A stretch of 63,951 nt of DNA, filler included, from Licmophora abbreviata (lineage: Eukaryota), in the NCBI GenBank assembly GCA_900291995.1. It is 10 parts of 10 records of this genome, joined end to end, with 100 filler letters (N's around TTAATTAATTAA, not from the genome) between each part and the next. Parts side by side here need not be neighbours in the genome. Positions count along the whole stretch, not along the records: positions 17,189 to 20,784 come from OLMU01003363.1; positions 20,885 to 22,916 come from OLMU01003364.1; 8 more parts are not named here. One strand, written 5' to 3'. The notes beneath the pieces are model-generated. The model ran no database searches and was not told the DNA's origin. It worked only from the letters and a program-made list of their open reading frames with translations. A program made the position numbers and the translations under genes. The stretch's first letter is position 1. Each line of letters starts with the position of its first letter. This document shows positions 20,117 to 56,653 of the stretch, piece by piece.

Positions 20117-22306
20117 ATGCACTTTCGTCGGTTGTGCTGGACGACCTTGTCTCTCTGGACGACAGCACTTTCATCGCGAGCAGCGCCGGCTCAAGCCTTT
20201 TCGGCGGCTTCCTCTAGCGGCAACAACATGTCATCCCTGTCCACAGTCGAATCATCCTTTTCGTTGGATCCACCGGGTACGTTGGAACCGGTCCAAGAGA
20301 TACTGGAGAACTCCTGGGTGCGGCAGCTGTCCCCCGAGACACCCGAGAATCTGAAAAAGTCGCGTGGTGTCGAGCGACTCATTGAGCTCGATGACAATCG
20401 CACGAAACGGCCCGTGTACAATGGACACTACGTATTGGTGAAACCGACGGGATTGATGAAGCCTCGTCTAGTCTTGTATTCTCCCAAAGTGGCGGAAATG
20501 CTCCATCTGACTCCCGATCAGGTGGAATCGGCGGACTTTCTGAACTATGTCAGTGGCAACCTAGCAATTGGCGAAACGTGGGCAACGCCCTATGCGCTGA
20601 GTATCATGGGAACGAGATACACAAATAATTGTCCTTACGGATCAGGAGATGGCTATGGTGACGGTCGAGCCATAAGCATTGGGGAATTCGGTGGCTATGA
20701 ACTGCAGTTGAAGGGAGCCGGCAAGACCCCCTTTCACAGAGGCGCCGATGGACGAGCCGTGTTGCGGAGCAGCATTCGTGAATTNNNNNNNNNNNNNNNN
20801 NNNNNNNNNNNNNNNNNNNNNNNNNNNNTTAATTAATTAANNNNNNNNNNNNNNNNNNNNNNNNNNNNNNNNNNNNNNNNNNNNTCAGTGGCACAGCTTG
20901 GAGTGCGAACGACGCGTGGCTTGTCGCTCGTAGTGAGTGGCGTGAACACATCACAGCGACCGTGGTACTCGGAGAATTCCAAATTACAGTTGCCGACCAT
21001 GGACGATCCTCGACTGTCCCAATACACGGAGGAACAGAAGCGTCAGATCCTATCACAGCTGCGTAACGAAAAGGCCGATCCCAACTTGATGATTACCGAG
21101 CCGAATGCCATCACGTGTCGTGTAGCTCCTAGCTTTACACGAGTTGGGCATTTCGACTTGTTTGCGCGTCGTGCCGAAAAGGCAAGCATTGCGAATGCGG
21201 ACAAGACGAACAGTAAGTATGATACTAGTACAAATGAATGGAAGGAGCTCGAGCAACTGGTGTGGCATGGATGCTATCGAGAGTTCCTGGAAGAAGCCTA
21301 CGATCCATTCATTGAGGAGCAGGATATTGCTGGTGCGGCCACGGTCATGCTGGAACAAGCAGCCGAACGTCTTTCGAGCATGGTGGCTTCCTGGGTTCGT
21401 GTGGGTTTTGCACAAGGAAATTTCAATGCCGATAACTGCCTCATTGGTGGGCATACGATGGACTACGGGCCTTTTGGGTTCATGGACGAGTACAGTCCTT
21501 TGTTTGCGAAATGGTAAGTCACGAAAATGCAGGTCTGCTGTTGGTCGACGTAATGGCGTGCTCAAGTGCTACCATTTAACTCTCTCTACATCAGGACGGG
21601 TAGTGGCAATCACTTTGGCTTCATGAACCAGCCTAGTGCTGGATTTGTCAACTACCAGGTGCTGGTGGAAAGTGTTGTCCCGGTAATTTGCGCTGCGCAA
21701 AAGGATGAAGATGCGGAGGCGGTCATCAAGAACTTCATGGAGCGTGCACAGGAGCTATTCATGGGAAAGGTCGATGAAATGTTCAGTATCAAGATGGGAC
21801 TGGCTCCCGGCAATGAGGCAAGCGAAGATTTGTGGCAGAACTTAGAGCCACTGATGCGAACCACTCGGGTGGATTGGACCATTTTCTGGCGACGGTTGTA
21901 CGAAGTGTCCAGGGACTTCGATTCCGACTCTACGGACTATGAAGGCATGCTGGAGAAGTTGGTCGGAATCGGGGACAGCGGCTCATTCTATGAGACACTT
22001 ACTCTCGGGCAGCGTAGGCAGTATTTGGCGTGGATTGAGCAATGGAGAGATGTCGTCAAGGACGAAGATGGCGCGACGGAACGGATGCGTCTTGCGAATC
22101 CCAAGTACGTCCTTCGGGAGTGGATGTTAGTAGATGCATATTCTGCTGCGTCGACTGGTGACGAAGACGTGCTAAAGGACTTGTTCGAATTGATACAAGA
22201 GCCCTACAAAGAAGGTAGCACTCGACAGTCCGAGTCCTTCTTTGTTCGCGCGCGCGAAGAGGCGTTGATGGCGGGCGGGACTGCGTTTATGTCATGATCC
22301 TCGTAG
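20117..22306 (+). CDS. SELENOO: Selenoprotein O (protein adenylyltransferase) with Sec encoded by TGA 22295-22297; spans gap 20785-20884; intron 21514-21594
   Basis: YGDGRA, QLKGAGKTPFHRGADGRAVLRSSIRE, GFAQGNFNADN, DYGPFGF, NPKYVLREW; 3' end ATG TCA TGA TCC TCG TAG = M-S-U-S-S-stop; alternative ATG at 20045. Confidence 0.93.
20785..20884. other. Artificial scaffold gap spacer inside SelO
   Basis: N44-TTAATTAATTAA-N44; only a few codons (LASEAM-like) appear to be missing. Confidence 0.97.
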
Positions 22307-22392
22307 TCGTGCAGTGTACGCCGTTCTGATAAGAGGACGGCACGCTGCACGCGCAGACTGCAATCTCCTTGGGGCTGTTGAAATTTGGTGTC

Positions 22393-22476
22393 TATTCATG
22401 GATGACGGGTGCACGGGACAAGTGGATAATAAAGACATACGTCGAATCACTCGTCTAGGCAACCTGAAAATGAGTA
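22393..22476 (+). promoter_or_regulatory. Candidate eukaryotic SECIS element (type II, long apical arm)
   Basis: Helix I TATTCAT/ATGAGTA; core ATGAC (22402) and TGAA (22465); helix II GGGTGC..GGAC/GTCT..GCAACC; unpaired AA at 22420; apical stem GTGGAT/ATCAC; folded by eye. Confidence 0.65.
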
Positions 22477-22597
22477 TGCACGTTGGCAGTTAAGGGCATT
22501 GATTTCTACATGAAGCGACGGGGAAGGGCTTAGTTAAGTTACACATAGCCGTGAATTTCTTGCTTTGATCCTCCGCACTGTTGGATGAACGTGTATT

Positions 22598-24174
22598 CTA
22601 CGATGTCCCTTGATAAAGAATCCCGCAATCAAAGTACTTCACACAGTCAGCGTCACAAGAGCTTGCCTGGTCATCAAAACAGCAGGCGGCACTTTTACAG
22701 ATCTCCTCGCAGTAGCTCTTGTCGCTACCCAGGCATGCTTGTCTTACGTCTGTCTTGCTTACACCGCCTCCGTTCGTGGTGCCTGGGCTGGAGCCCGAGC
22801 CGGAGCCGCTACCACCCGCCCCATTTTCAAGCACTATACTACAGTCAAAGTAGGTAATGCAATCCAAAGAAGCGTCGGAACACTCTTCATTGTCATCAAA
22901 GCAGCATCTGGCTGGTNNNNNNNNNNNNNNNNNNNNNNNNNNNNNNNNNNNNNNNNNNNNTTAATTAATTAANNNNNNNNNNNNNNNNNNNNNNNNNNNN
23001 NNNNNNNNNNNNNNNNTGCGAGGCAAGCTTCTTGGACGTCTTGCTTTGTGACATCACCTCCCGTTTCTTTTCCACCGCCTGTGTCCACACTGCCTCCCGA
23101 TGTGCTGAAGATATCTTCGCACGGCCCGTAGTCGACGCAGTTGACGTCCGACGAGCAATCTTCGTCGGAAAAGCAGCAGGCACCTCTGGCGCACACCAGC
23201 TGGCAGTATGACGTGTGCCTGATCTCTCCATGATCCCCGAAGGTACATGCCTCTCGGATTTCGAAAATGCTAGTTTCGATCTCCTGGCCGCCGGTGTGAA
23301 GCTCATTGCATTCCTCGTATTGGGAACAAAAGGACGTGTCGTGGTGTTGGCAATCTTCGGCGCTACCAGGGTCAGCAAAGCAGCAGAGTGCGTTGGAGCA
23401 AACTTGGTGACACTTCAGTCGATCTTCAGGTGTGATGAGCACCTCAGGGGCGCAAACGGCATCTACCAACTGAGGGATACTTTCATGCTCGTGGTCGGTA
23501 GCGCCGAGGTTCAAACACGGCGCGTAGGACTGGCATTCTGCTTGAGTGGTACACGATGTGACATTATCCTCGAAACAGCACTCAGCATGATGGCACGCAT
23601 CGTGACACTCAGTGAAGCCATCGACAGTCGCCAAACTCTCAGTTGTACACATTTCCGGAAGGTTGGCGGGGGCCTGGGGAATATCCGTAGGTGTTTCGGA
23701 CGCCTGGGTACCTGTCAAGACGCCACAGAACGCGTGATACTCGAGGCACCTACGTTCGTTTCCAGGGAGGCATGAAAGCGGCATGTTGGTTGGAAAGTGG
23801 CAGCATTCGGCTGGCTCACAGAGCTCCTGGCACGCTTGTTTGCCACCATCTGTGGCAACGAGCTCTTCTGAGCACTTGGTTGTCATGTCCGAGGGTGGGA
23901 GCGGAAGGCCAGCATGCGTTGAGACCGATGGGTCACTACCTCCAGAAGGTAGAGTTACAACAAGAATGATGATAGAAACAAGAATCCCAGCAATAGTAAG
24001 GACAATCTTGGTCTTCCGGGGGTCCAGCGATCGACGGGTGGGGGGGAGTGCTGAGTTGCGGATGTCCGACTCGGGGTATATGTTCTCGCCGTAAGAGTCC
24101 TGGACATCGGTCCAAGGCCGATGTGTAGGCACCCGTGTCATGCTGTTGGGATCGTAAATGGTGTCATCCGTCAT
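22598..24174 (-). CDS. Type II membrane protein with tandem Cys-rich repeats; spans gap 22917-23016
   Basis: N-terminal TM IVLTIAGILVSIIILVV, then at least 6 repeats of C-x3-C-x2-A-x-CC-x(n)-C-x(n)-C-x2-Y-x2-C continuing after the gap to the stop at 22598. Confidence 0.8.
22917..23016. other. Artificial scaffold gap spacer
   Basis: N44-TTAATTAATTAA-N44 within a repeat-containing gene. Confidence 0.97.
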
Positions 24175-40368: not shown

Positions 40369-41159
40369 CATGGAAGATTGCGACTGTCGTCTCTAGTCCG
40401 ATGCTGTGCAGGTTGGCTTTGTGATCAAGATGTTTCACCTAGCGGGTGCCGGGGTACGACTGTGATTGACACTGGGCCAATATACGTTATACTTGTGTCA
40501 GAGAGAAATAAATATCGTAACGTGCATCTATAATATGTCATTCTCTAACTTTACAGTTCTGTCGTTCTGAATGGTGGAGTCTGTGATCACACCTAGATCT
40601 GTTCGAGAAAGATGTGGAGCTATCTTCGATACACGAGCGCCGACGTGCCTCTGTAAATTCGTTGTTGCTTTTTTACAGCTGGTCATCAGTGCGCCGTAAG
40701 TCGGCAGAACGCACACCTGGTAGACGCGGTGCTACTAAATGATGAGCTAGTCTACCTGGTATCAATACGGTAGATACCGGTAGGGGGTTGTGACCGATTG
40801 TGGCTATCGTACAAGTACGAAAAGAATCTCTGTGTGAGAGATGTCGAAGAAAACTCAGCGCTCGTGTATGATATGGGGCTATGGTGACTACAAATCAGAC
40901 GCGATGCGTACGCTAAAAATATTCGACTTTTGGCGATGAAGTTGAGACGCGCGCAGAAAAAGTGGACATCACCATGATGATGATGGCTAGCTAGGGAACA
41001 GTGGAACCGCATTGCATATACTCCTGCCGAATTGGTTCGACCTGCGCACCCCGACACATGAAAATCTATCGAGAATTAGTGAAAGAAATGAAAGAGGAAA
41101 TGAAGGCTTAGTGACTTTCTTTGCCGAAAGAATCGAAACAGAGCTATTTTCTATTTGAA

Positions 41160-55342: not shown

Positions 55343-56653
55343 ATGAGCGATTATGAGTCGTCGTCGCAGCTGAAATTTTGGCTCTTTACGCCGAAACTCT
55401 TGGGGCAGTGCCGAGCACGAGCCAACCGACAGGGACGAGATCATGTGCTGCAGCAGACTAGCGCAACGGATCCCGAGGGTAGTGCTGCTGATTCGTCCAA
55501 CATCAGTAGGCGTCCGACGTACTCCTTTGCACGAGGGTATGCGAAACGAGTAGCAGCGGGTGGGGAAGAGAGCTCTGAAGACATGGCCACTGGCGACGAC
55601 GACACACAGACGACTTTGTCGGGCCACCCCTTTGTCACACCCGCGGAAGAAGCCTTGCTTGTGGACTTTTATGCTAGTAAGTTGCCTTCCTTACTAGGAC
55701 CCATGGCTCAGGTATCAAGGCTACGACGAGATGTCAAAGTACCCTCGACGGCAGCCTTGCTCTTTCGACGATTCTTCCTATCCAACTCGGTGATGCTACA
55801 TGATCCGAAATCCGTCATGCTCGCAGCGGCCTTTTTGGCCTCCAAAATAGAAGACGCCACGACGGATGTAAGTGTATCCTTCGTTGTATCGGTGGCGTAG
55901 AGTCACGGCGGAACCTGTGCAAATGGATGCTCATCGCTAGACTCCTTTTCTTCTACACTGTAGATTCGTTATCTGGAAGAGGGCACACGACTGATGAATG
56001 CACCCGTCACGGCTGCCGAAGTACTTCCCGCCGAACTATCCATGATCGAAGGTATTCATTTCGATCTTCAATGTTTTCATCCCTACAAGGCTGTTACTGC
56101 CTTTACGGAAGACTTGCGCATGTACTTGAAGTCTGAAAAGGGCCGAAGGTTGGTAGTCCATCATCATGGTGATCAGATCATTTCCGGGCAGGATCTCAAG
56201 CCCATGCACGATCGGGCGAGATCGTTGGTGGATGACGTTGTCGTCAGCGATGTGCCCTTGTTGTACAGTCCAGGACAGATTGGGTTGGCGGCTCTGATGG
56301 TCGCCAATGAAGAACTGTTGCAGCAACAAAAACAAGAGCAGCAGCAGCCGTCTCCAACAGTTCCCAAGATTGATCTGCTAGGATATGTGCACCAACGTTT
56401 CGATGGGGAAGGAGATGAGTTTATGAAACAAACCATGGACGATCTGTGTGTTGCGCTGAAGGCGCTCAAGGAAGGTCAATTTGGATGTGCAGCGCGTCAT
56501 GTGGACATGCAGAAACTCAAGGCCGTACACAAGAAGCTTAAGAAGTGTCGCATGTGGGGACAGTCGACTAGCAAGAAGAGCAAGAAGCGTAAGATTGACT
56601 CCGAGGACGGCCCAGATAATAAAAAGACGCGTACGACTTTGAAAACGACATGA
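55343..56653 (+). CDS. CCNH: Cyclin H (CAK/TFIIH); intron 55868-55963
   Basis: YESSSQLKFWLF, TAALLFRRFFLSNSVMLHDPK, FLASKIE, FDLQCFHPYK, LLYSPGQIGLAAL. Confidence 0.92.

Follow-up and report, generated by a model that had tools for sequence, protein, structure and literature searches.

The SelO locus and its in-frame TGA

The DNA analysed here is a stretch of 63,951 nucleotides from Licmophora abbreviata, about 64 kb, to which we refer throughout as the window. Its plus strand carries, at about 20.1-22.3 kb, a two-exon nuclear gene of the SelO/YdiU family whose frame meets a TGA three codons before a TAG. Judged from its sequence, this gene is the nuclear SelO (SELENOO, protein adenylyltransferase) of a diatom-like alga. 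We present evidence that the TGA very probably encodes selenocysteine (Sec), in which case the predicted protein would end ...GGTAFMS-Sec-Ser-Ser at the true stop codon TAG 22304-22306.

The frame closes with ...GCG TTT ATG TCA TGA TCC TCG TAG, the TGA occupying 22295-22297 and the TAG 22304-22306. In the list of open reading frames (ORFs) made with translation table 11, the frame 21566..22297 ends at the TGA; read with TGA as U, the SelO protein ends ...GGTAFMSUSS*. An initial annotation of this DNA had described a frame that stops at TGA 22295 while the DNA goes on TCC TCG TAG, and this description is exact. It had also remarked that no Cys stands three residues before the Sec, which the residues F-M-S-U bear out. 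The features of the locus are the following.

20117..20784, plus strand: SelO coding, first part, with an in-frame ATG at 20117 and a Pfam SelO match at 20117-20782
20785..20885, no strand: run of N with a TTAATTAATTAA core, a contig linker or masked stretch inside SelO coding, seen in the sequence
20886..21513, plus strand: SelO coding, rest of exon 1, with a Pfam SelO match at 20888-21514 and tblastn support; GT at 21514
21514..21594, plus strand: intron of 81 nt, GT...AG, with in-frame stops and GTAAGT...CAG boundaries, skipped by the homolog alignment
21595..22294, plus strand: SelO exon 2 up to the Ser that precedes the recoded codon (...GGTAFMS), from translation, Pfam and tblastn
22295..22297, plus strand: TGA, the predicted selenocysteine and third residue from the C-terminus, aligned with Cys in 64 related loci and with TGA in 13
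22298..22306, plus strand: Ser-Ser codons TCC TCG and the predicted true stop TAG; Ser-Ser-stop is found in 13 of 13 TGA-type loci
22308..22351, plus strand: proximal stem-loop of 44 nt whose outer stem has 10 uninterrupted pairs, with a folding energy of -29.4 kcal/mol and a z-score of -6.1 against shuffles
22352..22365, plus strand: 3′ flank of the stem-loop, recognized by eye; the A-rich motif N-A-K-A-N-A-A-A of the relatives falls here
22388..22481, plus strand: probable selenocysteine insertion sequence (SECIS) found by folding, with helix I formed by 22388-22399 and 22470-22481, ATGA at 22402-22405 and GA at 22466-22467

Pfam SelO (PF02696) matches the three coding pieces with E-values of 3.9e-09, 1.9e-15 and 9.9e-23, all of which pass the curated cut-off. 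The closest full-length homolog, the protein P0002, aligns by tblastn over its residues 4-618 at 65 % identity, and itself matches the solved SelO/YdiU structures 6K20, 6III, 9JYM and 6EAC (E 7e-41 to 2e-39). Those homologs that carry a name are diatoms, belonging to Cylindrotheca, Seminavis, Nitzschia, Pseudo-nitzschia, Epithemia, Phaeodactylum and Thalassiosira, and these names suggest a diatom, probably of the pennate type, as the source of the gene. The tblastn alignment with P0002 begins at 20282, and an N-terminal presequence of about 55 residues lies ahead of this conserved region. Further along, the homolog's ...FLASEAMHY... spans the N run at 20785-20885, which hides about 4-5 SelO codons. 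A second N run around a TTAATTAATTAA core is found at 22918-23000; both runs have stops in all frames and look like linkers joining contigs, or masked stretches.

The cleavage motif of diatom plastid targeting has Phe at +1. The SelO N-terminal extension (20117-20281) starts with a hydrophobic signal-like stretch and continues with A-Q-A-F, which recalls this motif; vertebrate SelO is mitochondrial.

In public sequencing runs, parts of the window are covered only by DNA contigs of marine metagenomes, with no RNA run listed. One such contig, X2, is identical to the window over 22169-22406, TGA included, at low depth. It gives weak independent support for the codon, its run being possibly the source sample. 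Reads with TGC or TGT at this place had been named in the initial annotation as an observation that would speak against recoding; the single covering DNA contig shows TGA.

The TGA column in related loci

We scanned metagenome contigs with the SelO family alignment and read each of the 79 loci found through its end. At the column that corresponds to the TGA of the window, 64 loci have Cys-Ser-Ser-stop and 13 have TGA-Ser-Ser-stop, the remaining 2 being unclear. The TGA-type loci (L001-L012 and L014) are also the ones most similar to the window among the 79, with 33-55 % identity. The two serines are present in every one of these 13 loci and are written in five ways (TCC AGC, TCC AGT, TCT TCG, TCT TCA and TCC TCG); the stop that follows them is always TAA or TAG. 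This switching between TCN and AGY codons with the serine kept argues that both codons after the TGA are translated and under purifying selection.

Recoding of the TGA as Sec, with Cys or Sec expected in this column of an ortholog alignment, had been proposed in the initial annotation. The relatives support the proposal: the column is Cys in 64 of the 79 loci and TGA in 13, and Ser-Ser is kept. Orthologs that end at the Ser before the TGA would have pointed the other way, and all 13 TGA-type loci instead continue to Ser-Ser-stop with synonymous changes.

Public protein sets give a complementary picture. Among the 120 protein homologs listed, 106 end one residue before the Sec column (...FMS and variants), 10 end in CSS, and 4 are truncated or different. 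The 106 short ends are as expected of gene callers, which stop at Sec codons, and the anticipated loss of three residues in standard annotation would be what these 106 entries display. The ten homologs ending ...CSS are P0002, P0006, P0007, P0017, P0021, P0036, P0090, P0092, P0099 and P0105; U is displayed as C in the protein homologs, so that these ends may be Cys or Sec.

The CSS-ending homologs of diatom type include P0002, the closest relative of the window at 65 % identity. If the ten CSS ends were true Cys, Sec and Cys forms would alternate among close diatom relatives.

A candidate SECIS element in the 3′ untranslated region

The probable SECIS at 22388-22481 lies in the predicted 3′ untranslated region (UTR), with its ATGA core 105 nt 3′ of the TGA. 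The ATGA and the GA opposite are placed between two helices as for a tandem G.A quartet, and the folding energies are -14.5 kcal/mol for helix II and -11.9 kcal/mol for helix I. Helix II is long and contains an A-rich internal loop and a mini-stem. Inspection by eye, followed by folding, revealed an ATGAC...TGA core between two helices as a common property of the relatives' 3′ UTRs. The ATGAC core follows the TGA at a distance of 94-199 nt, both in the window and in 10 of the 10 relatives whose 3′ flank is long enough to fold, a count that leaves aside L004 and L007 (short flanks, no motif) and L009 (cut right after ATGAC).

Two-helix thresholds were set from the relatives at -12 kcal/mol or lower for helix II and -8 kcal/mol or lower for helix I. 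An energy scan of both strands of the window returned 20 matches, 4 of them with ATGAC and TGA, and one is the site in the SelO 3′ UTR; this site is the sole plus-strand match of the scan between 21234 and 28615. From the frequency of matches in the scan, the odds of a chance match of such quality in a 300-nt UTR and on the right strand are roughly 1 in 100.

A number of results weigh against this element and, more generally, against Sec at the TGA. Both helix thresholds are passed by only 6 of the 11 SECIS candidates, namely those of the window, L002, L003, L006, L010 and L012; L005 and L011 pass one of the two, and L001, L008 and L014 neither, or doubtfully. A search of 21800-22920 with Rfam release 15 at E-values up to 10 returned no SECIS family, nor did an Rfam scan of the 13 related loci, the only matches in either being miRNA and snoRNA families at chance level. 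R1, a covariance model built from the SECIS elements of L002, L003 and L006, scores the candidate of the window at 3.1 bits (E 3.9 in 403 nt) and gives a slightly higher score to a site without the ATGA core. In canonical SECIS elements, AA (or CC) is left unpaired some 10-13 nt above the core. In the window, an AA is found 15-16 nt beyond the core, with one of its two letters paired in the minimum free energy fold, and the A-rich loop begins at 21 nt; relatives L002 and L003 have their AA at 11-12 nt. Finally, no tRNA gene was found within the 64-kb window, and none of the 28 ORFs scanned had a Pfam match to a family recognised as Sec machinery.

Some of these results also bear on the tools used. 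Rfam misses the elements of the relatives too, and its SECIS models are therefore insensitive for this lineage. R1 finds its own three sequences strongly and scores the SelO sites of L011, L010, L005, L001 and L008 at 9.1-14.5 bits, among 9 other weak matches; it is no independent confirmation of the candidate in the window. A strict pattern scanner demanding 8 of 9 helix II pairs missed the elements of the window and of most relatives and was too strict, and nine SECIS regions aligned with MAFFT gave no usable result, owing to their variable apical parts. We grade the SECIS evidence in the window as moderate, and consider from its sequence and fold that 22388-22481 is probably a functional SECIS.

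Three other candidates were rejected. A SECIS-like match at 40479-40555 on the minus strand (E 1.2) has neither a complementary helix II nor a plausible selenoprotein ORF upstream, and another, on the plus strand at 56232-56297, falls within a long open frame; we attribute both to chance. A second candidate in the SelO UTR, with its ATGA at 22510, shows no helix I by eye and failed the energy scan.

Locus L001 contains an additional SECIS-like element, GAATGAC...TTGA, at 336-424 on the plus strand and about 1.6 kb upstream of its SelO homolog. It scores 19.5 bits with R1 (E 0.015-0.056) and may be part of the 3′ UTR of an adjacent selenoprotein gene.

Selenocysteine and the alternative explanations

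We favour Sec at 22295-22297 because of the codon pattern, the Cys/TGA column, the selection on the two codons that follow and the SECIS-shaped hairpin downstream. One alternative takes the TGA as a genuine stop, so that the protein would end ...GGTAFMS and Ser-Ser-stop would be untranslated sequence. This would agree with the standard annotation of 106 of the 120 database homologs, with the lack of a SECIS match in Rfam and with the lack of a tRNA gene in the window. However, truncated ends are what a gene caller produces at any Sec codon, and a real stop would leave without explanation the Ser-Ser and stop that all 13 TGA-type loci retain through TCN/AGY switches, the Cys found in this column in 64 loci and the ATGAC...TGA hairpins conserved in the 3′ UTRs. 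We therefore hold a real stop to be very unlikely. Decoding without selenium, in which a near-cognate tRNA (Cys, Trp or Arg) would read the TGA and the stem-loop at 22308-22351 would act as a readthrough stimulator, is less likely again. A stable stem-loop about 10 nt past a stop codon has the geometry of known readthrough signals, and the support for a SECIS in the window is no more than moderate. Against this stand the SECIS core ATGAC...TGA conserved in the relatives, the exchange of Sec and Cys in one column, which is the classical signature of selenoproteins, and the status of SelO as an established selenoprotein with published SECIS elements in Ostreococcus and Porphyra (PMC2375036).

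In a window stitched from pieces, with a linker within the gene itself and low depth in public runs, one could suspect an error of sequencing or assembly, or else a pseudogene in decay. Yet contig X2 is identical across the site, the same TGA recurs in 13 other loci, and the reading frame, open apart from this TGA, shares 65 % identity with a homolog along 615 residues; of the explanations considered, we find this one the least credible.

With Sec as the preferred reading, the SECIS in the 3′ UTR, most likely 22388-22481, would recruit SBP2 and eEFSec with Sec-tRNA, and a ribosome paused at the UGA would insert Sec by the standard eukaryotic route, as expected from knowledge of the family. The primary paper on SelO is said to describe the C-terminal Cys or Sec as a redox switch. 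By analogy with the family (PMC12409994, PMC3281104), the C-terminal Sec of the window gene would be the redox-sensitive residue of an AMPylating pseudokinase. With lower confidence, we suggest that the stem-loop at 22308-22351, which would lie at about the mRNA entry, could modulate the choice between termination and Sec insertion.

A stem-loop directly after the stop codon

The stem-loop at 22308-22351 begins 1-2 nt after the SelO stop and is the most stable of the 12513 sliding 50-nt windows on the plus strand of the whole 64 kb. All informative relatives have a post-stop stem-loop with the base GCG.../...CGC(G), and in the window and the 12 relatives with a registered stem it starts 11-13 nt after the U of the UGA. 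Locus L004 has only a weak stem of 6 bp. The stem can take in the G of the TAG stop in L001, and perhaps also in the window. For 8 of the 12 relatives, at most one window of equal length in the whole locus matches or beats the stability of the stem-loop; the four relatives with long loops (80-148 nt) rank in the top 1.6-12.5 %. Besides diatom-like loci, at least two GC-rich loci that are not diatom-like, L012 and L014, have the structure. The A-rich motif on its 3′ side, again recognized by eye, is common to the diatom-type loci, the copy in the window being the most divergent.

Pairing and covariation were assessed on A5, an alignment of nine stem-loop sequences. Across the nine outer pairs, 83 % of its cells are paired, and compensatory changes occur in 5 of these 9 pairs, with 0 of 500 shuffles reaching the covariation score. 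These figures have to be read with a caveat: with the alignment slid by -2, 72 % of cells remain paired, as the stem arm is an alternating repeat, and the 3′ arm of the window is aligned 2 nt out of register. A cruder test, asking for 8 of 9 pairs at the UGA, is passed by 10 of 14 loci at a span of 70 and by 13 of 14 at a span of 160, compared with 31 % and 55 % of random positions, and is weak on its own.

The position of the stem-loop would correspond roughly to the mRNA entry of a ribosome that has the UGA in its A site. Elements of the selenocysteine redefinition element (SRE) type have a conserved stem-loop with compensatory changes, no more than about 6-12 nt from the UGA. By this analogy, the stem-loop at 22308-22351 and the A-rich motif might form an accessory Sec-recoding element of algal SelO mRNAs, a proposal that we make tentatively and with somewhat less than even confidence. 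Alternatively, the stem-loop may be a pure spacer or have an unrelated role in mRNA stability. A narrow search of the literature on proximal stem-loops in selenoprotein UGA contexts gave no paper on algae by title and the start of the abstract, and we do not claim that such structures are unreported.

In the GC-rich, non-diatom-like locus L014 (2763-2870), GATGAC comes immediately after the stem-loop and is itself followed by CGAAG, which complements the CTTCG of the Ser codons; from this sequence, the context of the Sec codon might pair with the region beside the ATGA core. The sequence downstream of the L014 stem-loop gave no convincing canonical SECIS.

Relation to known selenoproteins

The enzyme SelO has a kinase fold and AMPylates proteins of redox homeostasis at Ser, Thr and Tyr, and the C-terminal Sec of the human protein is conserved (PMC12409994). 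Sec in SELO is reported from Metazoa and a few small eukaryotes, Ostreococcus and stramenopiles among them (PMC3281104). In the same work, Dudkiewicz et al. (2012) define a 'marine picoeukaryote' branch of SELO, which includes Thalassiosira and Phaeodactylum and 'has usually the Uxx motif'. As Uxx at the C-terminus is typical of this marine algal branch, the missing Cys at -3 has already been described and is not unusual. Lobanov et al. (2007, PMC2375036) report Sec-containing SelO with SECIS elements in Ostreococcus and Porphyra, and for Thalassiosira pseudonana a sequenced Sec tRNA and 16 selenoprotein genes. Diatoms are given 20-44 selenoprotein genes in PMC7539508, and SELENOO is listed among the algal selenoprotein families by Jiang et al. 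(2020).

Among known systems, the gene in the window resembles the marine picoeukaryote SELO proteins (Ostreococcus, Micromonas, Aureococcus, Ectocarpus, Thalassiosira, Phaeodactylum) in its Pfam SelO domain, in a predicted Uxx end without Cys at -3 and in a probable SECIS in the 3′ UTR. It differs from them in that its closest protein is 65 % identical and in its SECIS candidate, whose helix II is longer and which reads GGATGAC in place of GAATGAC. Bacterial SelO/YdiU proteins (E. coli 6K20/6III, P. syringae 6EAC), for which AMPylation and UMPylation activity is described (PMC12409994), belong to the same fold family and share the type of C-terminus, -x-S-C-S-S being the end found in the 64 loci with Cys. 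Unlike the window gene, they have Cys in place of Sec and neither a SECIS, an intron nor an N-terminal presequence. Vertebrate SELENOO, a mitochondrial protein ending C-x-x-U-S-S, likewise has Sec third from the end with two residues after it, but carries a Cys three residues before the Sec where the window gene has Phe.

Structures close to a C-terminal Sec codon have precedents in mammals. In SelS mRNA, a proximal stem-loop is followed by the conserved SelS positive UGA recoding (SPUR) motif, and in reporter assays SPUR was required while the loop was dispensable or inhibitory (PMC6844570). The same study predicts proximal stem-loops in six of seven other mRNAs with a C-terminal Sec, SelO included (Cockman et al. 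2019), the one in mammalian SelO lying, as in the window, at the start of the 3′ UTR. The stem-loop described here could by this comparison possibly date to the common ancestor with animal SelO. The SRE of SELENON and the stem-loop with SPUR of SELENOS (PMC8704476, PMC6844570) share with the window gene a stem-loop near the UGA followed by a conserved motif, with Sec near the C-terminus. This is a likeness of layout, with no similarity of sequence claimed.

The Sec-ending SelO of the window is a known and ordinary kind of selenoprotein gene, and its annotation needs three more residues and a selenoprotein label. Most SelO entries for diatoms in public protein sets call for an equal correction, with 106 of 120 homologs cut at this point. 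For SelO biology this adds nothing new, the C-terminal Sec of the algal branch having been in print since 2007-2012. Only the stem-loop after the stop goes beyond routine re-annotation, and it may interest specialists of recoding: the series of stem-loops, with loops from 28 to about 150 nt, offers a natural comparison of accessory structures at a UGA three codons before the stop. If it is an accessory element, it would tune termination versus insertion for a Sec three codons from the end, in analogy to the SelS loop and SPUR or to the SELENON SRE.

Other observations in the window

Of the 28 long ORFs of the window that were scanned, Pfam recognises 15, with matches to UCH, SET, bromodomain, LRR, TFIIH Tfb2 and Ctr; by these matches, they are ordinary eukaryotic nuclear genes. 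On the minus strand at 22598-22867, a small Cys-rich ORF of 89 aa with no Pfam match is convergent with SelO and ends about 120 nt past the SelO SECIS, so that the 3′ UTRs of the two genes probably overlap or abut.

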